Below the pieces are notes generated by a model. It did not search any database. It was not told the DNA's origin and was given only the letters and a program-made list of their open reading frames with translations. From assembly GCA_023134715.1 (NCBI GenBank), contig JAGLUP010000006.1, forward strand, positions 74,653 through 138,652: 64,000 bases of DNA, written 5' to 3'. Of the stretch, positions 8,988 to 42,808 are shown one piece after another. This stretch comes from Candidatus Parcubacteria bacterium (GTDB lineage: Bacteria; Patescibacteriota; Minisyncoccia; Minisyncoccales; JAGLUP01). Each line of letters starts with the position of its first letter. Within the stretch, counting starts at the first letter, position 1. A program made the position numbers and the translations under genes.

Positions 8988-9023
8988 ATAACACATATAG
9001 CACGATCGTTGTATATGTGTTAT
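8988..9023. repeat. 36-bp CGATCG-centred palindrome, copy P1
   Basis: ATAACACATATAGCACGATCGTTGTATATGTGTTAT, preceded by (GTAGAAA)x3. Confidence 0.9.
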
Positions 9024-9095
9024 ACAATAAAATAAACATAAAAAAAGAGACGCTCGGTTTTCCCAAACGCCCTATTTTAATTCTATCTAAAAAAA

Positions 9096-9575
9096 TCATT
9101 TGTCTATTCTCGGAGTATGCCGCATTTCCCATCCAATCAACTCTTCGCCAAATAATCTCATCACTTTTTTTAATTTTTCCCAATTTTGCTGGATTATCCT
9201 ATTAACGTCCTCTTGATTTTCCGCTAAAATATCCCAATGATACGTCTCTCCCGGACTCGCATATAAAGAAGAATTAACATATATACTCCTCACTTTACCA
9301 AGAATCTTACTTATTCGATGATTTAATAAGAAGTTATATTTACACGCCCAAGATTCTTCTATGGGAATATTCTGTTTACCTTGCGGAATAACCTCAAAAT
9401 TTATTTTTACTATTCCGCATTTGTCACACTGATAATATCTCCGATTAAGAAATATTAATTCTCCTCCACACTCACATTTTATTTTTGCTTTTTTGAAATA
9501 CCGGCAAATAATTACTATAATTGCTATTATTGCCAAAAATCCCAATCCCATCCATAATAATTCTATTTTTCCCAT
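9096..9575 (-). CDS. hypothetical membrane-anchored protein with CxC...CxxC zinc-ribbon-like segment
   Basis: N-terminal TM (LGFLAIIAIIVIIC) then KCECGG...CDKCG. No family recognised. Confidence 0.4.
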   Translation of the reverse strand: MGKIELLWMGLGFLAIIAIIVIICRYFKKAKIKCECGGELIFLNRRYYQCDKCGIVKINFEVIPQGKQNIPIEESWACKYNFLLNHRISKILGKVRSIYVNSSLYASPGETYHWDILAENQEDVNRIIQQNWEKLKKVMRLFGEELIGWEMRHTPRIDK

Positions 9576-9666
9576 TTTATCACCTCAATTTTCAAAGACC
9601 ATCAGATTAGTTAATTTGACCAATCTTCATTTGATATTAAAATCTTACCAAAAGTTCTTATCATTG

Positions 9667-10413
9667 TCAAATTTTTGTCAACACCTTGCTTCCGTCTTTT
9701 GTAACAGCTATCATATGTTCAAAATGGGCGGAGAGAGAACCGTCTCTTGTTTCCCAACCAAAACCGTCTTTTGATTTTTTTATTTGCCAGCTTCCGACTG
9801 TCACCATTGGCTCCAAGCAAAAAACCATACCTTCTTTAACTTTCTCGCCTTTATGCCTTTGCCCATAATTAGGAATTTGCGGGTCTTCGTGCAATTTTTT
9901 TCCAATTCCATGCCCGCAAAGATCTCTAACAATTCCAAAACCCTGGGACTCAATATGTCTTTGAATTGTATTGCCAATATCTCCAATTGTAACCCCTGGC
10001 CGCATTTTTTTTATTCCACGCTTTAGCGCTTTTCTTGTAACTTGAATTAAACGTAAAATTTCTGGTTCAACTCCGCCCACTGGAACCGTAACCGCCATAT
10101 CTGCGTAATATCCCTTGTATTTAATTCCTAAATCAAGAGAAAAAATATCTCCATTTTTTAATTCATAAGCGTTTGGCGCGCCATGAACAATCACTTGATT
10201 GACAGAAGCGCATAAAGCCGCTGGGAAGCCGTCATATCCTTTAAAAGCTGGTTTTACCCCACACTTAAAAATATGGCTTTCAGCAGCCATATTTATCTCT
10301 TTAGTAGTAATTCCCGGTTCAACCATTTTTTGCAATTCTTTCATGATTTCTGCCAGAATCCTGCCTCCTTGCGCCATTATTTTAATTTCTTCCTCTGATT
10401 TTATTGTTATCAT
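9667..10413 (-). CDS. map: type I methionine aminopeptidase
   Basis: VHGAPN, DLGIKYKGYYADMA, GHGIG and EPMV motifs. Confidence 0.9.
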   Translation of the reverse strand: MITIKSEEEIKIMAQGGRILAEIMKELQKMVEPGITTKEINMAAESHIFKCGVKPAFKGYDGFPAALCASVNQVIVHGAPNAYELKNGDIFSLDLGIKYKGYYADMAVTVPVGGVEPEILRLIQVTRKALKRGIKKMRPGVTIGDIGNTIQRHIESQGFGIVRDLCGHGIGKKLHEDPQIPNYGQRHKGEKVKEGMVFCLEPMVTVGSWQIKKSKDGFGWETRDGSLSAHFEHMIAVTKDGSKVLTKI

Positions 10414-11096
10414 TTTATGGCTTTTAAAATATCTGCAAATACTTCAGCAACTGTTTGCTCTCCCTTAATTTTTTCTACTGCTAAACCTTGCTCTTTAAAA
10501 TAGTTAATCAAAGGAAGAGTTCTTTCTTCATATTCTTTCAAACGAGTTTTAATAACTTCGGGGTCATCTAACCCCTTTCTTTTGAGTAATTTTGAACCAT
10601 CTAAAGGACAATTTTCAAGATTTTCTGTTTCTGAATTCCAAAGAATAGGATGGCGCATTAATTCGCAAATTCTCCTGTGAGAATTCCGCCAAATTGATTG
10701 TTCGGCTGAAAGCAAAATATTAATAACTTTAATGTTTTCTTTTCCATAAAGTTCAACTAAAACAGGAATTATTTTTTCGCCTTCGTGCATTGTTCTTGGA
10801 GAACCAGAAAAAAGAATGCTCTTTTTTTCTTTTGTCAATTCCTCAATTTTTTCTTTTACTAAATAAGTAGCAAACGGTGGTGAACATAAAACTCCTTTTA
10901 GCCATAAATCTTTTTCTTTATTCAGAAAATATTTTTCGCCATCAGCTTCTATAAACTCGTCTTTTTCAGCGTTCATAACCCTATTTTCAATCAACTTGCT
11001 TGTTTCAAAATAGTAAAGATCAAGCTTTTCAGAAAGCAAAATCCCCTGAGTTCCTTTTCCTGCGCCTGGCTGGCCAAGTAAAATTATAATTCTCAT
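10410..11096 (-). CDS. adk: adenylate kinase
   Basis: P-loop LLGQPGAGKGTQ. The gene sits in the canonical secY-adk-map position. Confidence 0.8.
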   Translation of the reverse strand: MRIIILLGQPGAGKGTQGILLSEKLDLYYFETSKLIENRVMNAEKDEFIEADGEKYFLNKEKDLWLKGVLCSPPFATYLVKEKIEELTKEKKSILFSGSPRTMHEGEKIIPVLVELYGKENIKVINILLSAEQSIWRNSHRRICELMRHPILWNSETENLENCPLDGSKLLKRKGLDDPEVIKTRLKEYEERTLPLINYFKEQGLAVEKIKGEQTVAEVFADILKAIK

Positions 11097-11100
11097 AAAT

Positions 11101-12387
11101 TTAAAATGTTTCGTAATCTCGCATTTGAAGCTGAGCGTTAATTTGCTTAATAGTATCTAAAACCACGCTTACTATAATAAGCAGAGAAGTGCCTCCTATC
11201 ATAAAAGAAAATGTCTGAATATCAGTTAAAGCGCTGATAATAAACGGCATCACGGCGATTGTGCTTAAAAATAAAGCTCCGAAAAATAAAACTCTATTTA
11301 AAATATAATGCAGAAAGTGCGAAGTGGATTCGCCGGGTCGAATTCCTGGCACAAAACCACCCATTTTTTTCAAATTATCAGCAATAGCTTTTGGATCAAA
11401 AGTAACTGCTGTATAAAAATAAGTAAAAAGAAACACTAAAGCAAAATAGAAAATCCCATAACCCAGAAGATTTGCCTGCGGGTCAAAAAAATTTCCAACG
11501 CTCTTTGCGATATCGCCTATCACGCCCGGCGTTCCTCCTAAAAAACCGGCTATCATCCCAGGAAAAAGCATAATAGATAAAGCAAAAATTATGGGAATTA
11601 CTCCGGCTGGATTAAGATTTAACGGCAGATAAGTAGAAACACCGCCATACATCTTTGAGCCCTTTACTCTTTTAGCGTAAGAAACAGGAATATTTCGCCG
11701 CGCCTCGTTAACCAAAACAACTCCGGCAATTATAACTAAAGCCAAACCAAGAAAAAGAATATAAGAAGGAGCCATGGAAACATCCCAGTTAATTAAACTC
11801 TGCCTGATTGACATTGGAAAACCAGAAATAATTCCAGCAAAAATCAAAAGGGAAACGCCATTGCCAATCCCCTTCTCTGAAATTAATTCTCCTAACCACA
11901 TTAGAAACAAAGCCCCTGCTGTAATAGTTAAAATTGATGTTATGAATAAAACTGGAGAAAGAGAACCTATTATATTCTGCCGCTGAAACAGGGTTAGCAT
12001 CGCAAAACCCTGAAGAATAGCTAACGGCACGGTCAAAATTCTTCCATATTGATTAAATTTCTGCCTACCTGCTTCTCCTTCTTCTTTATACATTTTTTCC
12101 AGCTGAGGAAAAATCATTGTTAATAACTGTAAAATAATAACTCCTGTGATATAAGGTCCCAATCCAAGCATTACAATAGAAAGTCGCTCTAATGCTCCGC
12201 CAGTAAAAAGATTCATAAGACCAAGCATTTGATTCCCTGCAAAAAAATTCCTTAAATTCTCTATGTCTATACCAGGAATCGGGATATTAGCCATTATTCT
12301 AAAAACAACAAAAATCCCCAAGACAAACAGAATCTTATTGCGTAAATCCTTTATTTTGAAAATTTGAGTAAACTTGTTTAATAACAT
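11101..12387 (-). CDS. secY: preprotein translocase subunit SecY
   Basis: 428-aa ten-TM ORF with the GIGNGVSLLIFAGI motif, following rplO. Confidence 0.92.
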   Translation of the reverse strand: MLLNKFTQIFKIKDLRNKILFVLGIFVVFRIMANIPIPGIDIENLRNFFAGNQMLGLMNLFTGGALERLSIVMLGLGPYITGVIILQLLTMIFPQLEKMYKEEGEAGRQKFNQYGRILTVPLAILQGFAMLTLFQRQNIIGSLSPVLFITSILTITAGALFLMWLGELISEKGIGNGVSLLIFAGIISGFPMSIRQSLINWDVSMAPSYILFLGLALVIIAGVVLVNEARRNIPVSYAKRVKGSKMYGGVSTYLPLNLNPAGVIPIIFALSIMLFPGMIAGFLGGTPGVIGDIAKSVGNFFDPQANLLGYGIFYFALVFLFTYFYTAVTFDPKAIADNLKKMGGFVPGIRPGESTSHFLHYILNRVLFFGALFLSTIAVMPFIISALTDIQTFSFMIGGTSLLIIVSVVLDTIKQINAQLQMRDYETF

Positions 12388-12397
12388 ATTCGCTTTG

Positions 12398-12850
12398 CTA
12401 TTTTACTTCGCCGCCTGCTTTCTCCACTTTTTCCTTTGCTGTTTTTGACACCTCGCACCTTTCTATTGTAAATTTTTTAGTAAGCTCTCCTTTTCCCAAA
12501 ATCTTTACTCTTGGCGTCTTTCCTTTTATTTTACTAATTATTTCCCTTTTAAGCAATACTGCTGGATTTATCTTTTCTCCAGTTTTAAATTTATTCTCCA
12601 AAATTTCTATATTTAAAATAGTAATTTTTCCCGCCTTGCGGGATCCGCCTTTGGTGGAGGATTTTCTTTTATATCCTCTTAATTTATGATATTTTTTAAT
12701 CAACTCTCTAATAATCGGCTGAAATTTTCTTCCAGCTCGAGATTTCTGACCTTTTACTCCACGGCCAGAATAAGTGCCCCGTTTGCCGCCTCTGGCAATC
12801 CGTTTCTTTGTCTTTGGTTTATGTTTTGGTTTTACTTCGTGTAGTTGCAT
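12398..12850 (-). CDS. rplO: 50S ribosomal protein L15
   Basis: RIARGGKRGTYSGRGVKGQKSR. ATG at 12848-12850 is preferred to the upstream TTG. It follows rpsE directly, with no rpmD between them. Confidence 0.9.
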   Translation of the reverse strand: MQLHEVKPKHKPKTKKRIARGGKRGTYSGRGVKGQKSRAGRKFQPIIRELIKKYHKLRGYKRKSSTKGGSRKAGKITILNIEILENKFKTGEKINPAVLLKREIISKIKGKTPRVKILGKGELTKKFTIERCEVSKTAKEKVEKAGGEVK

Positions 12851-12905
12851 ATTCGCTTTGCTCAAAATTTAAAATTTTTAATCTTTAATCTTTTTTAATT
12901 TTTAT

Positions 12906-13409
12906 TTATGGTTTTTCTTTTTTAGTTTTTAGTCTTTCATTCAATTTTAGCTTTTCCAATGCTAAAATTGTGGCTTTAGCATTATTCAGTTTATTCCGAG
13001 ATCTTGATAAAATTTTTGAAGAAATGTTTTTTATTCCGGCTAAAGTGCAAATTACCCTTACTGTGCCGCCGGCGACTAACCCTCTCCCTTTTTTTTGTGG
13101 CTTAAGAAGAACCTTAGCCGCGCCAAACTTTGCTTCTGTTTGATAAGATATAGTATCATTAGAAATTGGAACAACCTTTACATTCTTTTTGGCTTTCTTG
13201 GTGGCTTTTTCTACTGCCTTGGCAACATCTAATCCTTTGGCAACCCCTAACCCGACCTTGCCTTTTTTATCTCCAACAACCATTACTGCGCGAAATTTAA
13301 AACGCTTTCCTCCCCTAGTAACCCTTGTAACTCTTGTCAAATCTAAAAGCTTGGATTCAAATCCATCTTTTGGTTCTTCTCTTCTTTTTTGAAATTTTTG
13401 TTTAAACAT
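12906..13409 (-). CDS. rpsE: 30S ribosomal protein S5
   Basis: VTRVTRGGKRFKFRAVMVVGD and GLVAGGTVR motifs. Confidence 0.92.
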   Translation of the reverse strand: MFKQKFQKRREEPKDGFESKLLDLTRVTRVTRGGKRFKFRAVMVVGDKKGKVGLGVAKGLDVAKAVEKATKKAKKNVKVVPISNDTISYQTEAKFGAAKVLLKPQKKGRGLVAGGTVRVICTLAGIKNISSKILSRSRNKLNNAKATILALEKLKLNERLKTKKEKP

Positions 13410-13413
13410 GTTT

Positions 13414-13758
13414 TTAGAATTGTAGTCCTCCTTCTCTTGCCCCCTCAGCTAATGCCTTTACTCTTCCATGATATTTAAACCCTCCTCTGTCAAAAATAAT
13501 TTTTTTAATCTTTTTTTCCAACGCTTTTTCTGCAATCAATTTTCCTATCTCACGAGCTATTACTGTTTTTTCTGCCTTTTTTTTCACATCATTGTCCTTT
13601 GCTGTAATAAGAATTTTGCCTTTTTCATCATCAATTAATTGAGCATAAATATGTTTATTTGAACGAAAAACAGAAAGCCGAGGAACCGTTTTAGTGCCTT
13701 TTATTCTTGCTCTAATTTTTTTATGACGTTTAACTCTTTTTTGTTGTTTTTCTAACAT
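13414..13758 (-). CDS. rplR: 50S ribosomal protein L18
   Basis: PRLSVFRSNKHIYAQLIDD and FDRGGFKYHGRVKALAEGAREGGL. Confidence 0.92.
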   Translation of the reverse strand: MLEKQQKRVKRHKKIRARIKGTKTVPRLSVFRSNKHIYAQLIDDEKGKILITAKDNDVKKKAEKTVIAREIGKLIAEKALEKKIKKIIFDRGGFKYHGRVKALAEGAREGGLQF

Positions 13759-13770
13759 ATTATAAAAATT

Positions 13771-14313: not shown

Positions 14314-14314
14314 A

Positions 14315-14716: not shown

Positions 14717-14895
14717 GATGATTTTTTTATTCCTGGAATTAATCCTTTATTTGCCATTTCTCGAAAGCATATTCGACATAAACCAAATTTGCGAATATAG
14801 CCATTTTTTCTACCGCACTTAAAACAGCGCCGAACAATCCGAGAACTGAATTTAGGTTTTTTCTTTGCCTTTACTATTAATGATTTCTTAGCCAT
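14710..14895 (-). CDS. rpsN: 30S ribosomal protein S14, zinc-binding Z type
   Basis: 61 aa with CFKCGR...CRICFRE. Confidence 0.9.
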
Positions 14896-18157: not shown

Positions 18158-18201
18158 ATATAATAATAAAATTTCTAATTTCTAATTTCTAAATAAATTA
18201 A

Positions 18202-18311
18202 GAAAACGAAGAAAACAAATTTTGAAATCGTGGGGTCCCGATAGGTGAAAGCTATCGGGATAGGGCGCGGTTAGGGGGAAACGATTTCAAAATTTCGTTT
18301 TCAGAGTTTTC
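18202..18311 (-). repeat. nested-hairpin intergenic element, copy D (type 1) inside the S10 operon
   Basis: Near-identical to copy C but with a compensatory C:G to T:A change at the base of the inner hairpin (TCCCGATAG...CTATCGGGA). Confidence 0.9.
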
Positions 18312-18322
18312 TTAATTATAGC

Positions 18323-18613
18323 TTACGGTTTGGTTTTTTTCTCCTCCTCTTTCTGCATTTTTCCGCCATGCCTTACAAACTTTGTTGTTGGAGCAAATTC
18401 ACCAAGTTTATGTCCAACCATATCTTCGCTCACATAAACCGGCACATGCTCTTTTCCATTATGCACTCCAAATACAAATCCTACCATTTCCGGAGCAATG
18501 GTGCAAGCTCTGGACCATGTCTTGATAATAGTTTTATCTTCTTGTTTTAAATTCAATATTTTCTTAAGTAATTTCTCGTCCACATAGGGACCCTTTTTAA
18601 GTGATCTAGACAT
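18323..18613 (-). CDS. rpsS: 30S ribosomal protein S19
   Basis: [11 protein letters not shown] and [13 protein letters not shown]. Confidence 0.92.
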
Positions 18614-19965: not shown

Positions 19966-20637
19966 TTAGTCATTTGGATTTGATTTGACATTTGGGCTTT
20001 GGGTTTTGGGTTTAATAAAAGTTTCTTTTATTGCATCTATCGCCTCTTTCGGTATCATTAAATATTTATAATTCAGTAAATCCAAACAGTTTAAATCTTT
20101 TGCCTGAATTGTTGCTGTTTTGGGAATATTTCTCGCGCCCAAAATTGCGTTTTTATCTATTTTTGCTAAAGCAATTAAACAAGTTTTTGCCTTACAGGGA
20201 AAATTATTTAAAATATTAAACATAACTTTGGTTTTGGCTTTTTCCGGCTTCAACTCATTCAAAACAATCAACTCTTTATCTCTTGCTTTCTGGCTTAAAA
20301 CTATAAACAACGCCTTTGTTTTCATTTTTTTAGGAATTCTCTTCTTGAAATTTCTCTCATTGGTCGGACCAAATGTAATTCCGCCTCCTCGCCAAATTGG
20401 AGAACGAGTTGAACCTGCTCTTGCTCTTCCGGTTCCTTTCTGCCGCCATGGCTTTCTGCCGCCGCCTCGCACCGCTCCCCTGTCTTTGGTATGCGCGATA
20501 ACTTTCCTGCGATTTGACATTTGAGAAACAGCTACTTGGTGAACTAAATCTGGGTTCATTTTCACATCAAAAATATCTGCCGGTAATTCAGTTTTTCCTG
20601 CTTCTTCCCCTTTTTGATTATAAACTGCAACTTTCAT
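19966..20637 (-). CDS. rplD: 50S ribosomal protein L4
   Basis: RGGGRKPWRQKGTGRARAGSTRSPIWRGGGITFGP. Confidence 0.93.
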   Translation of the reverse strand: MKVAVYNQKGEEAGKTELPADIFDVKMNPDLVHQVAVSQMSNRRKVIAHTKDRGAVRGGGRKPWRQKGTGRARAGSTRSPIWRGGGITFGPTNERNFKKRIPKKMKTKALFIVLSQKARDKELIVLNELKPEKAKTKVMFNILNNFPCKAKTCLIALAKIDKNAILGARNIPKTATIQAKDLNCLDLLNYKYLMIPKEAIDAIKETFIKPKTQSPNVKSNPND

Positions 20638-20765: not shown

Positions 20766-20826
20766 CCCCGTAGTGAGATGTTTAATCCCATGATGTTTAA
20801 TCCCGTGGATTAAACACTAACAAACA

Positions 20827-20855
20827 TTGACTTTTAGACCATAATTTGGTATAAT
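20827..20855 (+). promoter_or_regulatory. cassette 1 promoter (extended -10)
   Basis: TTGACT (20827-20832), a 17-nt spacer ending in TGG, then TATAAT (20850-20855). Confidence 0.75.
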
Positions 20856-20921
20856 ATAATTGTTTCAAATAAATAAATGAAACAATATTAAAAAACAAAT
20901 ATACAAAAAGGGTGATAAAAA

Positions 20922-21086
20922 ATGAAGATAAAAGTAATGTATGTAATTGGTGGAGTACTTTTGGGCTTCGGACTTACTAGGTTTGGCATATATATAGCTA
21001 GAGTCACTAATTCTTCAAAGATGATTGGAGCTGTATTCGGACTATTAACCGCAATAGGAATTATAATTATCTTGGAGTTGCTCTAA
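20922..21086 (+). CDS. 54-aa hydrophobic two-helix peptide (cassette 1)
   Basis: Not in the track (<60 aa). GGGTGA RBS lies 6 nt before the ATG. Sequence MKIKVMYVIGGVLLGFGLTRFGIYIARVTNSSKMIGAVFGLLTAIGIIIILELL. It is flanked by a strong promoter and a conserved terminator module. Confidence 0.6.
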   Translation: MKIKVMYVIGGVLLGFGLTRFGIYIARVTNSSKMIGAVFGLLTAIGIIIILELL

Positions 21087-21092
21087 AATCTT

Positions 21093-21159
21093 TTCGGGCG
21101 GACTATAAAAAAATAAAAGGTATTCAACTTAAGAAAAAGTTGCTCTGCCGATTTTTTTT
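21093..21159 (+). terminator. conserved cassette 3' module, copy 1
   Basis: TTCGGGCGGAC...CAACTT-AAGAAAA-AGTTG-CTCTGCCGA followed by T8. The outer stem is UCGG(G)CGG/CUGCCGA. Confidence 0.6.
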
Positions 21160-21175
21160 ATGTTATAATCTCTAT

Positions 21176-21275
21176 TGTGGTGGGGATGGCGCAGTGCTAT
21201 ACTTATATCAGTTAATAATCCTGGTTCTTGCATTACGTTAAGACCAGCAAAAGCTCTGCGAAAGCAGGGTTTTTT
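21176..21275 (+). ncRNA. candidate ~100-nt small RNA downstream of cassette 1
   Basis: Putative promoter TTGCTC (21140-21145), 18 nt, TATAAT (21164-21169). Internal hairpin CTGGTT...GACCAG. Clean terminator CTCTGC-GAAA-GCAGGG + T6 (21254-21275). No ORF. Confidence 0.35.
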
Positions 21276-21346
21276 GTTCGCCTAAAATTTGTAAAAAATT
21301 GTAAGGAGCTTTGTAAGGAGCTAAACTCCTTACAATTCTACAAACA

Positions 21347-21375
21347 TTGACTTTTAGGCCATAATTTGATATAAT
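21347..21375 (+). promoter_or_regulatory. cassette 2 promoter (extended -10)
   Basis: TTGACT (21347-21352), a 17-nt spacer ending in TGA, then TATAAT (21370-21375). Confidence 0.75.
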
Positions 21376-21435
21376 ATAATTGTTTCAAGTCAAAAGAAAC
21401 AAATTTAAAAAAATAAATATACCGAGGTGATGAAA

Positions 21436-21741
21436 ATGACATGGAAACTAATTCGAAGAAAGGGCACACCTGTCTATATGGTATTGGATGAAAGGGAAGA
21501 AGAAGAATTAAAAAAAGAATGCGATCTAACCGACGCAGATATTGACATTTTAGGAGAATTCAGAACAAAAGAAGATGGTCTAGATGTAAAGGATAAAATT
21601 TTTACAGTGACTACTATAAATTCTTATACGGGCAAAAAAGAAGAAACATGGAGTCGCGAAGCTGGTGAAAACTTTGCTGATAGGTTAGATTTTGACGAAA
21701 ATTTAGCAAAGACTATGCAAGAAATGCATTCTTTGTCTTAA
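21436..21741 (+). CDS. 101-aa acidic soluble protein (cassette 2), hypothetical
   Basis: GAGGTGA RBS, then ATG at 21436 (the track starts at GTG 21427). Sequence MTWKLIRRKGTPVYMVLDEREEEELKKECDLTDADIDILGEF... No family recognised. Confidence 0.6.
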   Translation: MTWKLIRRKGTPVYMVLDEREEEELKKECDLTDADIDILGEFRTKEDGLDVKDKIFTVTTINSYTGKKEETWSREAGENFADRLDFDENLAKTMQEMHSLS

Positions 21742-21746
21742 AGTCT

Positions 21747-21812
21747 TTCGGGCGGACTATAAAAAAACAAACGGTATTCAACTTAAAAAAAGTTGCTCTG
21801 CCGATTTTTTTT
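21747..21812 (+). terminator. conserved cassette 3' module, copy 2
   Basis: Identical to copy 3 over about 75 nt. Confidence 0.6.
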
Positions 21813-21837
21813 ATCTAATTTTCCCTGCCTGTAACTT

Positions 21838-21882
21838 AAGGAGCTTAGCTACAGGAGCTTAGCTACAGGAGCTTAGCTCCTT
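21838..21882. repeat. GGAGCTTAGCT tandem/palindrome block upstream of cassette 3 promoter
   Basis: AAGGAGCTTAGCTACAGGAGCTTAGCTACAGGAGCTTAGCTCCTT, i.e. 14-bp unit x2.5 ending in a palindrome. Same word family as 5154-5195. Confidence 0.85.
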
Positions 21883-21898
21883 GAAATTCTACAAAACA

Positions 21899-21927
21899 TT
21901 GACTTTCACGCCATAATTTGGTATAAT
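21899..21927 (+). promoter_or_regulatory. cassette 3 promoter (extended -10)
   Basis: TTGACT (21899-21904), a 17-nt spacer ending in TGG, then TATAAT (21922-21927). Confidence 0.75.
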
Positions 21928-21993
21928 GTAATTGTTTCAAATAAATAAATGAAACAATATTAAAAAACAAATATACAAAAAGGGTGATAAAAA

Positions 21994-22146
21994 ATGAAGA
22001 TTTTAAAAGGAATAGGACATGTTTTGCTTGGTTTTGGAATAGTAACATTGACTACCGTGATAATAATACCAGGCACCCACATAGTGGAATCTTTCATAGG
22101 TGGGATGTTAATAGGCGTTGGTGGAATGTTTTGTGGAACTGAGTAA
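21994..22146 (+). CDS. 50-aa hydrophobic two-helix peptide (cassette 3)
   Basis: Not in the track. The leader differs from cassette 1 at one base. Sequence MKILKGIGHVLLGFGIVTLTTVIIIPGTHIVESFIGGMLIGVGGMFCGTE. Confidence 0.6.
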   Translation: MKILKGIGHVLLGFGIVTLTTVIIIPGTHIVESFIGGMLIGVGGMFCGTE

Positions 22147-22167
22147 ACTCTCTCAAAAATCAGTCCT

Positions 22168-22233
22168 TTCGGGCGGACTATAAAAAAACAAACGGTATTC
22201 AACTTAAAAAAAGTTGCTCTGCCGATTTTTTTT
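22168..22233 (+). terminator. conserved cassette 3' module, copy 3
   Basis: TTTCGGGCGGACTATAAAAAAACAAACGGTATTCAACTTAAAAAAAGTTGCTCTGCCGA + T8. Confidence 0.6.
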
Positions 22234-22285
22234 ATCTAATTTTTCAACTTTTTATTTTTTCCACTCAATTTTAACTTTTCAAAAC

Positions 22286-22321: not shown

Positions 22322-22370
22322 ACTTTCCAACAAGCTATTTGAGAATAAAAGCCCATACAACATATAATAA

Positions 22371-22406
22371 AATAACAAATCAGGCCGATCGGCCTGATTT
22401 GTTATT
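22371..22406. terminator. 36-bp perfect palindrome, likely bidirectional terminator between rplC and the cassette array
   Basis: AATAACAAATCAGGCCGA|TCGGCCTGATTTGTTATT is exactly self-complementary. It has a CGATCG centre and U-rich flanks on both strands. Confidence 0.65.
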
Positions 22407-22468
22407 TATTCGCCACTTATTAATTATCAATTATCATTTATTAATTATTAATAATCAATAATTATTTA

Positions 22469-23065
22469 TCATTTGCTGATCGTTATTTCTAAAAATGTTC
22501 CGCGGCGGCCGGGAATTGCGCCACGAACAGCAAGTAAATTATTTTCTTTGTCAATTTTTACTATTTTTAAATTCTTTACTGTGATTCTTTCTACCCCCAT
22601 CCGTCCAGGCATCTTCTTTCCTTTAATTACTCTTTGGGGGAAAGCGCTTCCAACTGAACCAAGCGTTCTTTGTTCGTGCTTTACTCCATGAGTAGCGTTT
22701 CTTCCGGAAAATCCCCATCTTTTTACAGCGCCCTGGAATCCTTTTCCTTTAGAAATTCCAGAAATTTTAACCTTGCTACCCTCTTCAAAAACTGAAACAT
22801 CAATCTTGTCCCCTATTTTATGCTCACCACTGCTTTCAAATTCTCTTAAATATTGAAATTCTTTTCCTTTTTCTGTTTTTTTTATTCTTTTCTGTTTTTC
22901 TTTTTTAATAAACCCAACTTGAACTGCTTCATATCCATCTTTGTCTTTTGTTTTAAGCTGAACAACCTCGCAAGGACCTGCCTCAATTAAAGTAACAGGG
23001 ACTACTCGTCCCTGTTCGTTAAAAATCTGCGTCATTTCTATTTTCTTACCCAATATAAACTTCAT
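22469..23065 (-). CDS. rplC: 50S ribosomal protein L3
   Basis: GKKIEMTQIFNEQGRVVPVTLIE and GKGFQGAVKRWGF. Confidence 0.93.
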   Translation of the reverse strand: MKFILGKKIEMTQIFNEQGRVVPVTLIEAGPCEVVQLKTKDKDGYEAVQVGFIKKEKQKRIKKTEKGKEFQYLREFESSGEHKIGDKIDVSVFEEGSKVKISGISKGKGFQGAVKRWGFSGRNATHGVKHEQRTLGSVGSAFPQRVIKGKKMPGRMGVERITVKNLKIVKIDKENNLLAVRGAIPGRRGTFLEITISK

Positions 23066-24637: not shown

Positions 24638-24742
24638 AAATTTTGTATCTTGTATCTTGTATCAAGTATCTTGTATAATTTTTACTATGGCTATATACAA
24701 AATACTAAATACTAAATACTAAATTATATTATATTACTTATT

Positions 24743-30399: not shown

Positions 30400-30499
30400 G
30401 TTCCTTCGCTTTGCTCAGTCAAATTAAAAGTTAAAATTTAAAAATTAAAAATGACAAAACAAAAATATAAAAATAATCAAGCGTTTTATGCTTGATATG

Positions 30500-36303: not shown

Positions 36304-36304
36304 A

Positions 36305-36465
36305 GGAAACAAATTTTTCAATGCAAGAATTCTGGATTTTCTGAGACGCGTAGGGCTCCCTCCCGTCCCGATAGTTTCCGCCTATCGGGACGGGAAGGGA
36401 TAAAGCGCGAGGAAAAGACAGAATTCGAGCAAAAAAAATTTTAAAATTTAGTTTTTAGAGTTTTC
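36305..36465 (-). repeat. nested-hairpin intergenic element, copy E (type 2 core)
   Basis: Outer arms GGAAACAAATTTTT / AAAATTTAGTTTTTAGAGTTTTC. Middle arms GAATTCTGGATTTTCTGAGACGCG / CGCGAGGAAAAGACAGAATTC. Inner hairpin TCCCGTCCCGATAG-TTTCCGC-CTATCGGGACGGGA. Confidence 0.85.
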
Positions 36466-36496
36466 TGAATTCAAAAAATAATTATTATTCAACTTT

Positions 36497-37714: not shown

Positions 37715-37724
37715 TTTAATTTTT

Positions 37725-38063: not shown

Positions 38064-38412
38064 AAATCAACTTTTTAATTATTTGATTAATTTTATTTCT
38101 TATCTCCTGATTTTCAACATTCATTGAGTAATTATCTTGAGAAGGCCTAATATTAATTAAGGAAGAATATTCAATCTGTTCTTCTTTTTTTTGCTTTAGA
38201 GAATATAAATTAGCGCCCCATAAATTTTTATTATCAGACCCGTCTTTTATAAGCAATTCAGCGGCATCAGAATGAAGCTCTCCGCCCAAAGCAATTATTT
38301 CGCGCTCAATATCAACTACAAACTTAATCATTTCTTTAAAAGGATTATCTAAGAACTTTTTCAGATATTCTTTATTTATTTTTTCTTTAATAATTTCTAT
38401 TGGATATTCCAT
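38053..38412 (-). CDS. hypothetical protein (possibly DUF5674-like)
   Basis: KFVVDIEREIIALGGELHSDAAELLIKDGS...LWGANLY. The assignment is from memory only. Confidence 0.35.
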   Translation of the reverse strand: MEYPIEIIKEKINKEYLKKFLDNPFKEMIKFVVDIEREIIALGGELHSDAAELLIKDGSDNKNLWGANLYSLKQKKEEQIEYSSLINIRPSQDNYSMNVENQEIRNKINQIIKKLIYGE

Positions 38413-38417
38413 TAATT

Positions 38418-39080
38418 CTAAAGCAGTTTAAAATTATTAATTACCAAGCCGAAATCATAATTTAAATATTTTGCCGCTTTTCTGCAGTAAACCATTCTGT
38501 TTGTAAAAATTTCAAAATACTCCATAATCGGCACAAAATTAGTGTCAATTTTAAAAGTTAAAGTAATTCTTTTCTTTGTTTTATCAATTTTTAAACGGCT
38601 CATTTTTGTCGCAAAATTAACCCTATCATGAATGTCAGATTTTATCTCATCTATAACTTTGCGAATTACTCTTGAGCGATGCACATCTGACTTGTCAGCC
38701 AAAACAACAACAGCGGAAATCGGATTGGTAAAATTCATTTCTCCTTTATCGTGATTAGAAATCGCTTCCATAATTAAAACCAACTCTTCGGGACTAAAAT
38801 CATTGCTAAAAACCTGCTGAAAAAGCAAAGCTCCGAAATAATTATGATTAGTGCGGCTTAAAAAATTTGCCATATCATGGCAGAACCCGGCAATCGCAGA
38901 CAATTCCTGCTCTTTTTCACTTAATCCTATTTCTTTAGCAACGCTCCTCGCGCGATCAGCCACTAGATTAGAATGCCTTAAGCCATGCTCTGTAAAAGAA
39001 AGAGCGGCAAGAGAAATTTCTGTTTGTTTAATAAATTCTAAAATATAAAGATTTTTTTTAACTTGTTTTAAAGTAATCAT
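38418..39080 (-). CDS. HD-domain phosphohydrolase
   Basis: HGLRHS...GFCHDMAN H..HD motifs. Confidence 0.65.
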   Translation of the reverse strand: MITLKQVKKNLYILEFIKQTEISLAALSFTEHGLRHSNLVADRARSVAKEIGLSEKEQELSAIAGFCHDMANFLSRTNHNYFGALLFQQVFSNDFSPEELVLIMEAISNHDKGEMNFTNPISAVVVLADKSDVHRSRVIRKVIDEIKSDIHDRVNFATKMSRLKIDKTKKRITLTFKIDTNFVPIMEYFEIFTNRMVYCRKAAKYLNYDFGLVINNFKLL

Positions 39081-39094
39081 AAATTAAATTAAAA

Positions 39095-39352
39095 TTAAAA
39101 ATTAAAATCAGGCATCTGCGACATTTTTTGAGCCACAGCCATTTGAACTTTTTTTATTGCTTCATTAAAGCAATCCTTTAAAATTTTTTCCTGTTCTTGC
39201 TTGCTAAATTCTGAATTAAGCTGAATCTCTTCAATTTCCATCTTTCCGTTGAAAATAACTTTTATTCCTTGTTTTTCAACCTCCACTCTTTCATCTTTAA
39301 GAGAATCCTGCAGCTCCTTAAGTCTTTTTAATTGTGATAATTTATCAAACAT
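39095..39352 (-). CDS. YbaB/EbfC-family nucleoid-associated protein
   Basis: Size and the LKELQDSL...GIKVIFNGKMEIEEIQLN...ILKDCFNEAIKKVQ pattern. Confidence 0.6.
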   Translation of the reverse strand: MFDKLSQLKRLKELQDSLKDERVEVEKQGIKVIFNGKMEIEEIQLNSEFSKQEQEKILKDCFNEAIKKVQMAVAQKMSQMPDFNF

Positions 39353-39371
39353 ATTTCGTATTTATTATTTA

Positions 39372-39557
39372 TTATTTATTTTCCTCAATCGCCTCAACTG
39401 GACAGGACTGAATTGCCTGCTTTATACATTCTTTATCCTTGTCTAAATCTGCCCCTTGCTTTATCTGGGCTTTACCTTCAATAATCTCAAAAACATCAGA
39501 ACATAAATTTTGGCAAATGCCGCAGCCAACGCATTTTTCTTTGTTTATTTTAATCAT
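39372..39557 (-). CDS. small 4Fe-4S/3Fe-4S ferredoxin
   Basis: CVGCGICQNLC ... CP. ATG at 39555-39557. Confidence 0.7.
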   Translation of the reverse strand: MIKINKEKCVGCGICQNLCSDVFEIIEGKAQIKQGADLDKDKECIKQAIQSCPVEAIEENK

Positions 39558-39561
39558 ATTT

Positions 39562-40602
39562 TTATTGTGTTTTATTAAGAAAAATTGTTTGGGTAGGATA
39601 AGCCATTTCAATACCCTCCTGTTCAAAACGTTCTTTAATCGCAAAATTCATCTCCTGTTGAGTGTTCATATAATCAACATAATTACTGGAATTTAAATAA
39701 TAGACAATTTCAAAATTTAAACTGGAATCCCCGAATTCTTTAAAATGAACCCTGTCTATTTCTGCTAACTCAGCTTTTGCTATAATCTCTTTAATAATAT
39801 TAGGAATTCTCTTTAATTTCTCTGTAGAAATTTCATAAGTCACGCCAAAACCAAAAATAATCCTTCTCTTCTCCATTTTCTTATAGTTATGTATTCTTGC
39901 TTCTGTTAATTCTTTATTTGAAACCACTAATTCTTCTCCCTGAAGGGTTTGAAGCCGCGTAGATTTTATGCCAATTTTTTTAACTACCCCCATATCGGTT
40001 CCCACAATAATAAAATCCCCCACTTGAAAGGGTTTATCAAAATAAATAGAAACCGAAGAAAAAATATCAACCAAAATATTTTGTAAAGCAAAAGCAATAG
40101 CTATGCCTCCGATTCCCAAACCAGCGATTAAAGCGGAAACATCATAACCAAAATTTGATAAAATAATCACTACAGCCACACCCCATAAAGCGCCTTTTAA
40201 AACCTTGGTTAAAATATCAATAACGCCAGTATCAACCCCTGCTTCTTCTTTTCGCTTTTCTAAGATAATCTTTTTGGCGCCATAATCAATCAAATCCTGG
40301 CATCCTTTTATTACATAGTAAGCAACACTGATAAAAACCGCGTAATAAAGAACAGCAGCTATAAATTCTGGAACTTGAATAAACTGGGAAGCAATATACA
40401 AAGGCAGGAAAAAATAAAAAGACCAGCCAATGTTCTCAATAATCTTTATTAATAAATCATCAAGCTCTGTGCTGGTTTTTTCAGCAAGCTTTTTAAGCTT
40501 AGCAATTATAAAATGCTTAAAAATCTTCAAAGCAATAACTGTTGCCACAAAAACTCCTAAAGCTAAAATATGCTCTTGTGTAAATAAAAATTTAATCTCC
40601 AT
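39562..40602 (-). CDS. MscS-family mechanosensitive channel
   Basis: Three N-terminal TMs, then FDKPFQVGDFI and GVVKKIGIKSTRL. Confidence 0.8.
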   Translation of the reverse strand: MEIKFLFTQEHILALGVFVATVIALKIFKHFIIAKLKKLAEKTSTELDDLLIKIIENIGWSFYFFLPLYIASQFIQVPEFIAAVLYYAVFISVAYYVIKGCQDLIDYGAKKIILEKRKEEAGVDTGVIDILTKVLKGALWGVAVVIILSNFGYDVSALIAGLGIGGIAIAFALQNILVDIFSSVSIYFDKPFQVGDFIIVGTDMGVVKKIGIKSTRLQTLQGEELVVSNKELTEARIHNYKKMEKRRIIFGFGVTYEISTEKLKRIPNIIKEIIAKAELAEIDRVHFKEFGDSSLNFEIVYYLNSSNYVDYMNTQQEMNFAIKERFEQEGIEMAYPTQTIFLNKTQ

Positions 40603-40628
40603 ATTTTTTATGTTATATTTTCTAAATA

Positions 40629-40776
40629 GAAAACGCAGAAAACAAATTTTTCAAGGCGAGAATTCTGGATTTTCTGAGACGCGTAGGGCTCCCATCGCGA
40701 AAGCGACGGGATAAAGCGCGAAGAAAATTCAGAGTTTGAGCCAGAAAAATTTCAAAATTTAGTTTCCGGAATTTCC
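40629..40776 (-). repeat. nested-hairpin intergenic element, copy F (type 1 outer arms, type 2 core)
   Basis: GAAAACGCAGAAAACAAATTTTT...GAATTCTGGATTTTCTGAGACGCGTAGGGCTCCC-ATCGCGAAAGCGAC-GGGATAAAGCGCG...AAAATTTAGTTTCCGGAATTTCC. Its right arm encodes the last codons and stop of the GDSL gene. Confidence 0.85.
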
Positions 40777-41433
40777 AAAATTTAAAATTATTATCTTGTT
40801 TTTAATTAAAAAATCTTTTACGATTTCAAATATTTTTTCATGACCTTTTGAATTCGGATGCAAACCATCCTCTAATAAATTTTTGTAATCCAATTCTATC
40901 CACTTCTCAAAAATCTCAATAAAATAAATCTTATTTTCCGTGCAAACCGATTTTATAATTTCATTATATTTCCGGATATATTCGTTCTTGTATGATTTGC
41001 CTGTCTTGCTCCATGGAAGAGGTGTAACTTTTATTTCTTCAACCGGCGTTAATCCAATAAAGACAATCTTTAAGGAATAACTCCTCGCAAGATGAGATAA
41101 TTCTTGTAAATTTTCTTCAAATTTCTCCAATTCTGTCATAAACTCTTTTTGACTTTCCACAAAACAAGCATCATTAACGCCAATCTCAAATATTATTATC
41201 GTTTCTTCATTCTCCGACATTCGCAACATTCGCAACGGCGCTTCAAATTCAAATCGTTTCAGCAAATCTTTAGTCGCATCTCCGTCTATACCGAGATTAT
41301 AAACTACAAAATAATCTTCTGAATCAATAAATTTTCTATCTAAAAACCTTCTTAATCTCTGAACCCAACCGCCTTGCTCATAATCCCATGCGCCATAGCT
41401 AATTGAATCTCCAAAAACACAAATCCTTGCCAT
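40759..41433 (-). CDS. SGNH/GDSL hydrolase
   Basis: ICVFGDSISYG block I, GVNDA block III, and DGLHPN block V. Confidence 0.8.
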   Translation of the reverse strand: MARICVFGDSISYGAWDYEQGGWVQRLRRFLDRKFIDSEDYFVVYNLGIDGDATKDLLKRFEFEAPLRMLRMSENEETIIIFEIGVNDACFVESQKEFMTELEKFEENLQELSHLARSYSLKIVFIGLTPVEEIKVTPLPWSKTGKSYKNEYIRKYNEIIKSVCTENKIYFIEIFEKWIELDYKNLLEDGLHPNSKGHEKIFEIVKDFLIKNKIIILNFGNSGN

Positions 41434-41448
41434 AATTTTCTAAGCGAC

Positions 41449-41490
41449 GGAGACTCGTCCTCCCCTACAAACGCAGGAGGTCGGGTCTCC
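41449..41490 (+). other. GC-rich hairpin followed by CCTTTGTTTT
   Basis: GGAGACTCGTCCTCC / GGAGGTCGGGTCTCC pairs at 14 of 15 positions as plus-strand RNA (one U:G), followed by a U-rich tail. Confidence 0.5.
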
Positions 41491-41613
41491 TTTGTTTTAC
41501 TGATATATTATTTTTATTATAGCAAATATATTTAAAATCGCAACTATCGCGCGCTCATAAAAACCAAAAGAAAAAAGGGACGATTCCCTTTTTATTTATT
41601 ATTTTATCTATAT

Positions 41614-41784
41614 CTATGAATACAACTCTTTCCTTGCTAACTGAAATCGGTTTTCACTAACAACTACCCCGCACTTATTACAGCAACAATCATTTGTTCC
41701 ATAAGGATCTTTAATAATCTTTCCCTTACATCCTAACTCATAGCAATCTCCTATTATTTTCCAATTTTTTGACGTTCCTGACAT
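41614..41784 (-). CDS. 56-aa Cys-rich small protein (zinc-ribbon-like), hypothetical
   Basis: Not in the track. Sequence MSGTSKNWKIIGDCYELGCKGKIIKDPYGTNDCCCNKCGVVVSENRFQLARKELYS. It has its own promoter and an AGAGG RBS. Confidence 0.45.
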   Translation of the reverse strand: MSGTSKNWKIIGDCYELGCKGKIIKDPYGTNDCCCNKCGVVVSENRFQLARKELYS

Positions 41785-41834
41785 TTTTAATGTGCCTCTT
41801 TTATTTATATATAATTTTATTTATATAATAAACT

Positions 41835-41863
41835 ATAATGCCACATTAAAATAAAAAAGTCAA
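41835..41863 (-). promoter_or_regulatory. promoter for the Cys-rich small ORF
   Basis: Minus strand reads TTGACT (41858-41863), 17 nt, then CATTAT (41835-41840). Confidence 0.45.
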
Positions 41864-41876
41864 AATAAAAAACAAA

Positions 41877-41936
41877 GGAGGACGCCGCCCTCAGCGAGGG
41901 CGAACCTCGCCAAGAATTTTCTGGACGGGGGCTTCC
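41877..41936 (+). other. second GC-rich compound hairpin followed by CCTTTGTTTTT
   Basis: Outer stem CAAAGGAGG/CTTCCTTTG and inner stem CGCCCTC-AGC-GAGGGCG. Same orientation and tail as 41449-41490. Confidence 0.5.
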
Positions 41937-42034
41937 TTTGTTTTTGATAAATAAAAGCAAAATCAAACTATACCTCTATTCGCTTATAAATCGCAATATA
42001 ACTTTCCCGCAATATAACTTTTCCAAACTTCTCC

Positions 42035-42098
42035 CATCAAAATCCTTTCCCATTGAAATCCTTTCCCATTGAAATCCTTTCCCATTGAAATCCTTTGT
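42035..42098. repeat. 16-bp tandem repeat x4
   Basis: (CATTGAAATCCTTTCC) x4 with degenerate first and last units, abutting palindrome P3. Confidence 0.9.
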
Positions 42099-42134
42099 AT
42101 AACGCATATAGCACGATCGTTGTATATGTGTTAT
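42099..42134. repeat. 36-bp CGATCG-centred palindrome, copy P3
   Basis: ATAACGCATATAGCACGATCGTTGTATATGTGTTAT. Confidence 0.9.
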
Positions 42135-42205
42135 ACTCTGTAGCCCGCAATAAAAAGCAAAAAATAAAAAATAAGATAAAAAATCAAATTTTTATTTATT
42201 TAAAA

Positions 42206-42760
42206 TTAAATTTCTATCTCTTTAATCAGGAAAATTTTTACAAATTTATCCAATAAAAAAGCTCTTATTATTTTTTCTAAATCTTTACTTACCTCATAAG
42301 GCGAAATCCAAATGCTTCGTTGAAGTTTCTGAAACCCTAAATTATATAAAAATTTTCTGAAGTTATCTCTATATTTTCTTTTCTTTTCTGGAATATCAAA
42401 AATTACCATAATCCATTTTTTATCTTTTCGCTTTTTTAATTTTGATTTAAATTTTGGATTTAATTTATATTCTACTGTAAGCGCTTTTTGTTTTCCTTTT
42501 ACGGTCAATAAAATTCCCCTCCCCTCTTCTAAATTCTTGATTTTAATATATCCTTTCTTTTTTAAATAATTAATAAATTGCCCGAACTGCCTCTTGCTTC
42601 TTTTCCGTTCATACTCCCGCCAAAATTTAAAACTATCTGGATTGCAAACATCTCTCCAGCTTCTTACTGTGAATATCTCGTGTGGTTCGGCAATTTTCCC
42701 TAATTCTTCAAAAACAGAATATAAATCCCATAAAAATTTGTCTGTTAAGGGAATTTTCAT
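42206..42760 (-). CDS. PaaX-like / Cas2-fold domain protein with N-terminal winged-helix-like region
   Basis: C-terminal WIMVIFDIPEKKRKYRDNFRKFLYNLGFQKLQRSIWISPY matches the beta-alpha-beta signature shared by PaaX C-domains and Cas2. ATG at 42758-42760. Confidence 0.55.
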   Translation of the reverse strand: MKIPLTDKFLWDLYSVFEELGKIAEPHEIFTVRSWRDVCNPDSFKFWREYERKRSKRQFGQFINYLKKKGYIKIKNLEEGRGILLTVKGKQKALTVEYKLNPKFKSKLKKRKDKKWIMVIFDIPEKKRKYRDNFRKFLYNLGFQKLQRSIWISPYEVSKDLEKIIRAFLLDKFVKIFLIKEIEI

Positions 42761-42772
42761 CTTAAAATTATT

Positions 42773-42808
42773 ATAACACATATACCACGATCGTTGTATA
42801 TGTGTTAT
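42773..42808. repeat. 36-bp CGATCG-centred palindrome, copy P4
   Basis: ATAACACATATACCACGATCGTTGTATATGTGTTAT, identical to P2. Confidence 0.9.

Follow-up and report, generated by a model that had tools for sequence, protein, structure and literature searches.

Why does one 36-bp palindrome occur four times in a short stretch of a bacterial chromosome, and why do two of its copies enclose a single gene? The stretch analysed (the window) comprises 64,000 nucleotides of contig JAGLUP010000006.1 (assembly GCA_023134715.1, positions 74,653 to 138,652) from a Candidatus Parcubacteria bacterium, a member of the Candidate Phyla Radiation (CPR, Patescibacteria). It is low-GC (~34%) core chromosome, and nearly all of its genes are on the minus strand. 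A first-pass annotation, made from the sequence alone, had proposed that the palindromes are either operator sites of the enclosed, dimeric DNA-binding protein or the ends of a small mobile unit. Judging from comparative sequence analysis, the four copies, P1 to P4, are probably operators of the enclosed gene's product, a shortened relative of the repressor PaaX that is called mini-PaaX here. Their arms would be specific to this paralogue, and P4 would mediate autorepression.

Copies of the palindrome

The copies were located by searching the whole window with the degenerate 36-mer of the first-pass annotation. P1 (8988-9023), P2 (22286-22321), P3 (42099-42134) and P4 (42773-42808) all match it on the plus strand with 0 mismatches, while 100 dinucleotide-preserving shuffles gave 0 matches. 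The number of copies and the identity of P2 and P4 were thus confirmed. Pairwise identity among the four is 34-36 of 36: P1 differs from P2/P4 at position 13, and P3 differs from them at positions 6 and 13. Each copy is near-palindromic, the sole unpaired position in P2/P4 being 14 (vs 23), and the asymmetric spacer (CA...TT) is oriented alike in all four.

P3 and P4 bracket a single gene and nothing else, as had been noticed before. This is the mini-PaaX gene, 42206-42760 on the minus strand. P4 is the copy upstream of it and the proposed operator; P3 is the downstream copy and begins 71 nt past the stop codon. The earlier statement that the two lie 710 bp apart holds for their outer span (42099-42808), but from start to start the distance is 674 bp. 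P1 and P2 are solo copies. P1 is found directly after the intrinsic terminator (9072-9048) of a Zn-ribbon gene, 141-176 nt upstream of the start (8847) of a GT2 glycosyltransferase gene. P2 is flanked by the rplC terminator on one side and, on the other, by the 3' end of an array of plus-strand mini-cassettes. Homology of the P1 and P2 flanks to the other copies ends ~5 nt beyond the palindrome edge.

The enclosed gene

The mini-PaaX gene encodes a protein of 184 amino acids (aa), a winged-helix half followed by a Cas2-like PaaX_M domain. Its true start is 42760 and not 42781, as given in the list of open reading frames (ORFs), because the homologues all open with MK(I/L)P.TDKFLW. The two domains had been predicted at first reading, and both searches and modelling bear this out. 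Residues 110-178 match the Pfam model PaaX_M (PF20803, "PaaX central Cas2-like domain") with E = 2.7e-21 and 75.9 bits (cut-off 24), and the Pfam model CRISPR_Cas2 is matched with E = 3.8e-6. The Pfam models of the PaaX N-terminus and of PaaX_C found no match in the protein, and the PaaX equivalog TIGR02277 scored 25.3 bits, far below its cut-off of 264.55. The protein stops at residue 184, right behind the Cas2-like domain, and the C-terminal ligand domain of PaaX is absent.

An AlphaFold2 model built on 92 homologues (predicted local distance difference test, pLDDT, 78.7) places helices at residues 7-69, a beta-hairpin wing at 72-85 and a further helix at 87-100 in the N-terminal half. The C-terminal domain has the order beta-alpha-beta-beta-alpha-beta. 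The top Foldseek matches of the model are Cas2 chains (5xvn_F, 5zyf), and E. coli PaaX (8a39) and Rv0674 (3kfw) were also detected, with alignments of 126-129 columns for the latter two. A sequence search of the PDB with mini-PaaX returned nothing significant.

In public records the label for such proteins is "CRISPR-associated endonuclease Cas2". This is a misannotation by domain. It arises because the NCBIfam cas2 model (TIGR01573) just passes its cut-off (32.8 bits vs 24.5), and it is wrong because the domain is fused to a winged-helix half and the window holds neither cas1 nor a CRISPR array. Among the ~40 window genes scanned (the scope of all statements on gene content below) there is no cas gene, and no CRISPR-like interspaced repeats occur in the window. 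The Cas2 annotation of CRISPR-free mini-PaaX genes, which is widespread, stands corrected.

This is a large family. Close homologues number 347, nearly all of them patescibacterial, and every organism named in the sources belongs to the Parcubacteria or to the Patescibacteria group. At E <= 1e-10 there are 3143 cluster representatives, and the GTDB species genomes gave 436 matches, with three paralogues in several genomes.

The bracket across the family

The palindrome bracket is a hallmark of the gene family. A sensitive criterion was used for sites of this class: a CGRYCG or AAGCTT core and at least 14 of 20 flanking positions symmetric. Flanks long enough to judge both sides were available for 78 homologous loci, and 56 of these have such a site on each side of the gene. 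Taken one side at a time, the upstream site is present in 58 of 80 loci and the downstream site in 65 of 80. The remaining flanks, 950 kb in total, contain 24 class sites (~1 per 40 kb). A count of long even palindromes in 82 loci gave 66 within 350 bp upstream or 120 bp downstream of the gene, versus 37 in the other 1.02 Mb. The centres of these 66 gene-adjacent palindromes are CGRYCG in 53 cases and AAGCTT in seven.

Individual loci illustrate the pattern. Locus L001 (Parcubacteria DG_74_2) contains an 82%-identical orthologue in the same synteny as the window (SdpI - gene - GDSL - MscS), with ATAACACATATAACGCGGTCGCGTTATATGTGTTAT upstream and the same sequence with a GACC centre downstream. 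The 70%-identical homologue of L003 is found in another gene context and has ATAACACGTTTGGCACGGCCGTGCCAAACGTGTTAT on both sides. A divergent paralogue detected by chance (L060, 19092-19661) is bracketed as well. A subfamily linked to FemAB genes seemed palindrome-free at first, but its members, too, have imperfect palindromes on both sides.

Arms, spacers and core

The P1-P4 site is composed of two 12-bp arms (ATAACACATATA and TATATGTGTTAT) and a CGRYCG core, with 3-bp spacers between them. Across the family the core is common, while the outer arms are paralogue-specific and identical, or nearly so, on both sides of each gene. For example, three paralogues within one genome (JAGLOZ01; loci L040, L042 and L058) bear different arms. 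The core type tracks the protein phylogeny: in 42 of 70 cases a protein and its nearest neighbour have the same core, compared with 18.7 in shuffles. In the protein tree the AAGCTT-core group forms a clade. Within the palindromes, mismatches fall mainly on the central R-Y step and on positions 5-7 counted from the centre, and hardly ever on the arms.

Orthologous loci separate the conserved parts of the site from the variable ones. In the syntenic loci the arms of the window and of L001 are the same, those of L099 have one base changed, and all three have a CGRYCG core. The spacers, however, are CCA..TTG in the window, ACG..CGT in L001 and GTG..TCC in L099. A metagenome scan with arms and core fixed uncovered solo sites with the spacers CAA..CAT, ATG..TCC, CCG..CTG, GTG..CAC and GTA..TGC. 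The spacers are free and often asymmetric. This fits a two-part protein-binding site better than a hairpin, because symmetry is lost in the drifting spacers but arms and core are conserved.

The four copies in the window agree at spacer and core bases that vary between orthologous loci. Since these shared bases drift between orthologues, P1-P4 appear to have been copied or homogenised within the source genome, more recently than its split from L099. Sites this long are hard to reach by point mutation, and how P1-P4 were copied could be new biology.

It is very unlikely that the palindromes function as RNA or DNA stem-loops (terminators, stabilisers of mRNA 3' ends or cruciforms) instead of protein operators. 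P4 and P2 do fold as a 13+2-bp hairpin (-9.9 kcal/mol, z = -4.7), and between paralogues the interior changes while the overall symmetry is kept. On the minus strand GTTTTTTATTT comes after P1, and a neighbouring palindrome at 22370-22407, described below, does resemble a terminator. However, P3 keeps 34 of the 36 bases yet loses the fold; at -3.5 kcal/mol (z = -0.68) it folds no better than shuffles. The spacers are asymmetric in orthologous and in solo sites alike, and the mismatches have no G:U strand bias (15 vs 10). A terminator scan flagged none of P1, P2, P3 and P4, and the Zn-ribbon gene upstream of P1 has a terminator of its own. In most family members the order is T-tract, core, A-tract, which is the reverse of a terminator. 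If the -10 element sits in the arm, as proposed below, the upstream copy would moreover be mostly untranscribed. Rfam (gathering scores) and ARAGORN gave no matches over the window.

Overlap with the promoter

On the minus strand at P4 the sequence reads GTGGTATATGTGTTAT followed by AATAATTTTAAGATG. The proximal arm, TGTGTTAT continued by AAT, supplies an extended -10 element, TGTTATAAT (42770-42778, minus strand), which ends 9 nt before the ATG of the mini-PaaX gene. The mRNA appears to be leaderless or nearly so, because of this short distance and because no Shine-Dalgarno sequence precedes the ATG. A P4-like arrangement of -10 element and arm is also present in L006, L015, L073, L078 and L082. 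Over the family the distance from palindrome centre to ATG peaks sharply, with 18 of 58 loci at 27-33 nt; in the window it is 30 nt. A -10-like hexamer is found in the proximal arm in 39 of 58 loci, compared with 30 of 290 control windows, and a perfect TATAAT in 17 of 58 loci, compared with 2 of 290 controls. A second group of loci has a separate TGTGTATAAT promoter, which the palindrome precedes by 10-20 bp; the palindrome centre is then near -51.

The downstream copy is placed differently. Its centre is commonly +17 to +25 from the stop codon, which an arm overlaps. The next gene (ORF of at least 80 aa) starts 24-40 nt past the centre in 10 of 63 downstream copies, a count for which the control was uninformative. 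The idea that the downstream copy is the promoter of the next gene was rejected as a general rule, and it applies to a subset only, mainly loci followed by FemAB. The GDSL gene of the window, like that of L001, is served by its own promoter, and this promoter is conserved in L001 and L094. The plus-strand end of P3 reads TGTTATACT and is directed into the mini-PaaX gene.

The FemAB-linked loci deserve a separate mention. In L010, L013, L017, L018, L019, L023, L032, L038 and L068 the regulator subfamily is always immediately upstream of a ~343-aa FemAB-family gene. The downstream palindrome arm there coincides with the -10 element of the FemAB gene, whose start codon is ~28-33 nt from the centre. 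This suggests that the FemAB-linked regulator controls a peptidoglycan cross-bridge enzyme.

A proposed autoregulator

PaaX consists of an N-terminal winged helix, a dimerisation motif in the middle and a C-terminal domain (PMC9493321, a review of the phenylacetate pathway). The E. coli protein binds TGATTC(N27)GAATCA, a site of 39 bp, and represses its own Px promoter via steric hindrance of RNA polymerase (PMC9493321). Autorepression through P4 is the probable reading for mini-PaaX because a long, spaced inverted repeat over the gene's own promoter is the same design as in E. coli PaaX. In such a two-domain protein the winged-helix half would bind DNA and the Cas2-like half would correspond to the dimerisation motif of PaaX. 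The site would be read as double-stranded DNA through its arms and CGRYCG core, with the spacers free. A dimer on P4 would exclude RNA polymerase and the mini-PaaX gene would repress itself; self-repression would follow since the P4 arm carries the gene's own -10 element, with the start codon 9 nt further on. P3 may be a second site that serves in a repression loop, as a roadblock at the 3' end, or in an operator-controlled outward or antisense promoter. P1 and P2 would be extra sites of the same protein.

The operator reading of the first-pass annotation is therefore the one with the best support. This support comes from the bracket in the family, the paralogue-specific arms around a common core, the overlap with the -10 element, the distance to the start codon and the geometry of the PaaX operator. 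The accompanying proposal of a small regulon that touches the mini-cassette array fared worse: no specific link was found, and no ORF starts within ~150 bp of P2 on either strand.

Several observations weigh against this reading or limit its reach. A Mantel-type test of protein distance against arm distance gave r = 0.18, driven by close pairs, and the correlation is gone for pairs below 60% identity; with so low an r, carried by close pairs, it was rejected as evidence of co-evolution. Paralogues with different arms are rather similar in the helix that precedes the wing (RQFGQFINYLKKKGYI). At a guess, the specificity determinant may lie in the variable N-terminal 45 residues. The placement of site relative to promoter is not uniform, as some loci, and the palindrome at 4508-4553 in the window, have centres near -51 to -58, where activation fits as well as repression. 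The downstream copy keeps its position relative to the stop codon and not to the next gene, which makes "operator of the next gene" an insufficient account of it. The identity of P1-P4 in spacer and core implies copying or gene conversion, not independently evolved sites, and P2 is without an obvious target gene. Finally, we infer the binding of mini-PaaX to its sites, the repression and the roles of P3, P1 and P2 from comparative data and homology.

A mobile cassette as an unlikely alternative

The other early proposal, that the palindromes are the ends of a small mobile unit, received no positive support. In its more elaborate form the palindrome-gene-palindrome unit is a small selfish or domesticated cassette, REPtron-like or excisable. 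Its Cas2-like domain would be a nuclease or recombination factor acting at CGRYCG, and P1 and P2 would be dispersed copies or recombination scars. This is unlikely, although a number of features agree with it. Most family members have their own palindrome close by on both sides, whatever the neighbouring genes, and a small genome may hold several paralogues, each with its own palindrome. The genes downstream of family members are diverse housekeeping genes, and the downstream copy abuts the stop codon. P1-P4 are identical at drifting spacer positions, and homology stops at the palindrome edge. The Cas2 hallmark residues (the Asp of FDIPE, and QxSxW) are invariant in the homologues, but a role in structure alone would fit these residues as well.

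In L094, a relative with the same synteny (SdpI 84% identical), the unit is absent. This bears on the suggestion that the unit might be polymorphic in related genomes: it is missing there, yet it is present in L001 and L099. L094 has a 142-aa ORF instead, the GDSL gene is also missing, and no solo palindrome remains. The locus is a replacement, not a clean empty site. For the unit in general, no target-site duplication was found. Elsewhere the positions are stable, with synteny conserved in the window, L001, L099 and the nine FemAB-linked loci. The copy number is low (two solo copies in 64 kb, and about one class site per 40 kb of flanks). No HUH/Y1 transposase, other transposase or integrase is present among the window genes, and no relatives of mini-PaaX were found in viral contigs. 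The upstream geometry is explained by the promoter overlap.

A narrower version holds that the winged-helix-Cas2-like protein cuts or recombines at the CGRYCG core and thereby copies the palindrome, at times with the whole cassette, to new intergenic sites. We regard this as decidedly unlikely. If true, it would be a REP/RAYT-like system (repetitive extragenic palindromes and their associated tyrosine transposases) built on a Cas2 fold, and it would account for the near-identical solo copies P1 and P2.

GATC avoidance and the CGRYCG core

The sequence CGATCG occurs five times in the window, always at palindrome centres, and the five most symmetric GATC contexts of the window are exactly these five palindromes. 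GATC itself is depleted about three-fold (42 observed vs 135 expected from trinucleotides), and the hexamers GGATCC, AGATCT and TGATCA are each underrepresented too. Outside the palindromes, 0.6 CGATCG would be expected under an order-3 Markov model. CGATCG is missing there because GATC is avoided generally. Restriction pressure specific to CGATCG was rejected, as all GATC-containing hexamers are depleted and the Markov expectation is so low. The depletion suggests a GATC-directed restriction pressure, although no such enzyme is encoded among the scanned genes. Likewise, the PvuI-type (CGATCG) methyltransferase or restriction system that had been suggested earlier did not materialise: the scan uncovered no methyltransferase or restriction gene, and the avoidance is general.

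These data also bear on the possibility that the CGRYCG palindromes are bound by another shared protein, such as a component of restriction-modification or methylation or a general promoter factor, and that mini-PaaX genes merely use promoters of this type. The core is indeed common to paralogues with differing arms, GATC is strongly avoided yet kept at the palindrome centres, and the arms are rich in -10-like TATA motifs. Nevertheless this explanation is highly improbable. The arms differ between paralogues and match on the two sides of each gene, sites are enriched more than 100-fold beside genes of the mini-PaaX family over the flanks, and the core type follows the protein clade. Nor is a methyltransferase or restriction gene present among those scanned. 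Operators specific to each mini-PaaX paralogue remain the probable reading.

Other palindromes and repeats in the window

A second palindrome near P2 had been described as unrelated, 36 bp long and 50 bp away. It is perfect and has a CGATCG centre, as stated, but it is 38 bp long (22370-22407, minus strand), starts 48 bp after P2 and scores as a terminator of rplC. It was flagged as terminator-like with a 17-pair stem, 6 G-C pairs and a T-rich tail, and it folds with -16.8 kcal/mol (z = -9.6). Its GC core is preceded by the A-rich arm and followed by the T-rich one. No relatives of this palindrome turned up in ~100 fetched loci. Most simply, it would be a (bidirectional) intrinsic terminator of rplC and not a copy of P1-P4. 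The idea that it is the site of another paralogue was rejected for lack of relatives in the fetched loci and because of the better fit as the rplC terminator.

An imperfect 46-bp palindrome at 4508-4553 belongs to the architectural class of P1-P4. It has a CGGCCG centre and TATAA-type arms, and 18 of 22 positions are symmetric. Its centre is ~25 nt upstream of the TTGACA-16-TAGAAT promoter of a HEAT-repeat gene (3582-4436). Possibly it serves a further paralogue whose gene is not in the window.

The tandem repeats reported to abut P1 and P3 are real: Tandem Repeats Finder (TRF) detected a 7-mer x3.7 at 8948-8973 next to P1 and a 16-mer x4.1 at 42032-42096 next to P3. Their adjacency is not specific, however. 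Short, mostly 7-nt tandem repeats are common between the window genes, with 27 TRF arrays in 64 kb (for example 12892-12937, 22417-22471, 24643-24724 and 30421-30474). Tandem repeats are found within 100 bp of 24 of 77 class palindromes (31%), versus 7% of random positions. They were rejected as a part of the element, since such an enrichment is expected for intergenic DNA and the units are unrelated to the arms. Tandem repeats are seen beside palindromes in related loci too, e.g. GATGAAATAA x4 in L001, which includes the start codon.

Two further repeat types were noted. A palindromic 14-mer (AGGAGCTTAGCTCC) forms tandem arrays at two distant intergenic sites, 5138-5208 and 21824-21894. A separate family of ~150-nt intergenic repeats with inverted arms (AAAACAAATTTTGAAATCGT and ACGATTTCAAAATTT) has six copies (346-504, 6083-6223, 6960-7108, 18185-18333, 36394-36487 and 40612-40798) and no Rfam match.

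Genes of the window

The window encodes AlaRS, MnmA, TIM, GalT, the GT2 glycosyltransferase, MAP, Adk, SecY, the ribosomal proteins L3, L4 and S7, EF-Tu, EF-G and a block of cohesin/dockerin proteins. The neighbours of mini-PaaX are SdpI, a GDSL lipase and MscS. The SdpI/DUF1648 membrane protein (42817-43455) has 66-75% identical homologues in archaea-labelled records (Korarchaeota, Woesearchaeota, Thermoplasmata, Aenigmarchaeota), and this unusually high conservation suggests horizontal transfer or mis-binning. On the other side of the mini-PaaX gene, ~500 bp of the window (within 41434-42098) are missing from the orthologous L001 locus. Two units are found in this region. One (~41996-41878) runs from promoter to terminator with no ORF in between and may encode a small RNA; the other is a 56-aa Cys-rich (zinc-ribbon-like) ORF (41614-41784) that has a promoter and a terminator to itself.

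Near P2, the S10 operon is interrupted by 1.8 kb between rplD (19966-20637) and rplC (22469-23065). Within the insert are three plus-strand mini-cassettes (20812-22243), each with a common 118-nt promoter module (TTGACT-17-TATAAT) and a common 78-nt 3' module carrying a terminator. Their small ORFs are variable: 54-aa and 50-aa membrane peptides and a 104-aa acidic protein.

The cohesin/dockerin-type surface protein genes form a run of paralogues at 43452-50310, and their junctions contain repeated GTTTCGTGT-type tandem units of 11-24 nt and direct repeats of 91-263 nt. Farther on, 55996-63864 is one 2622-aa ORF with internal repeats of 130-260 nt, in a segment with 43% G+C compared with ~34% elsewhere. 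Two AAA_14/DUF4143 ATPase genes precede it.

Comparison with known systems

The literature searched contains no PaaX-like or Cas2-like protein tied to palindromes in CPR bacteria, and the searchable literature describes no comparable regulator-operator pair for CPR/Patescibacteria. What is most likely new here is a truncated PaaX-type autoregulator, widespread in Patescibacteria, whose putative operators are long, CGRYCG-centred palindromes with paralogue-specific arms that bracket the gene. A large family, often with several paralogues per small genome, would thus be accompanied by its probable binding site on either side of the gene. At 36-56 bp the sites are long enough to be recognised from genome sequence alone, and regulons could be read without prior experiments. 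The pair is directly testable, in a bacterial group that is poorly understood.

Some known systems resemble the locus only in part. An intrinsic terminator has a G+C-rich stem and a T run; P1-P4, unlike the rplC palindrome, were not flagged as such. Integron attC sites are imperfect, have RYYYAAC/GTTRRRY core sites and occur with an IntI integrase nearby. Here no integrase was found, and the arms of other family members are without common AAC/GTT ends. Rep proteins of iteron plasmids (RepE/RepA type) are winged-helix dimers that autorepress via an inverted repeat over their own promoter. The inverted-repeat autorepressor design and the short tandem repeats nearby are alike, but the tandem repeats here are unrelated to the arms, and the locus is in the core chromosome with no replication genes.

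The comparison with REP/RAYT systems (REPtrons) goes by what Nunvar in 2010, Bertels and Rainey in 2011 and Ton-Hoang in 2012 reportedly described. The likeness is in a gene flanked by its own cognate palindrome, in paralogues that pair with different palindromes and in extra intergenic copies. In contrast to RAYTs, mini-PaaX is not an HUH/Y1 transposase, as Pfam gives only PaaX_M and Cas2. REP sequences are present in tens to hundreds of copies per genome, whereas here the 64 kb of the window contain two solo copies and the 950 kb of flanks 24 class sites. Furthermore, the mini-PaaX palindromes coincide with promoters and keep a set distance to the start codon.

With Cas2 and the VapD-type Cas2-like toxins, mini-PaaX shares the ferredoxin-like fold and the hallmark motifs in its C-terminal 70 residues. 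Cas2 is a stand-alone protein of ~90-110 aa, whereas in mini-PaaX the domain is fused to a 105-aa winged-helix half, and the homologous loci have housekeeping neighbours in place of cas1 and a CRISPR array.

The closest counterpart is PaaX, a GntR-type repressor of phenylacetate catabolism in E. coli and Pseudomonas (structures PDB 8a39 and 3l09). Both proteins have a winged-helix N-terminus followed by the Cas2-like PaaX_M domain, in line with the Foldseek match to 8a39, and the putative mini-PaaX operator, predicted in silico, resembles the PaaX one in its geometry, a long, widely spaced inverted repeat over the gene's own promoter. Mini-PaaX, however, has 184 aa compared with ~300 aa and is without the C-terminal helical domain that binds phenylacetyl-CoA. 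No paa genes were found near it among the scanned genes, and it occurs as several paralogues per genome, each with its own arms. To the PaaX design the mini-PaaX site adds a conserved CGRYCG core and a second copy of the putative operator directly after the gene.

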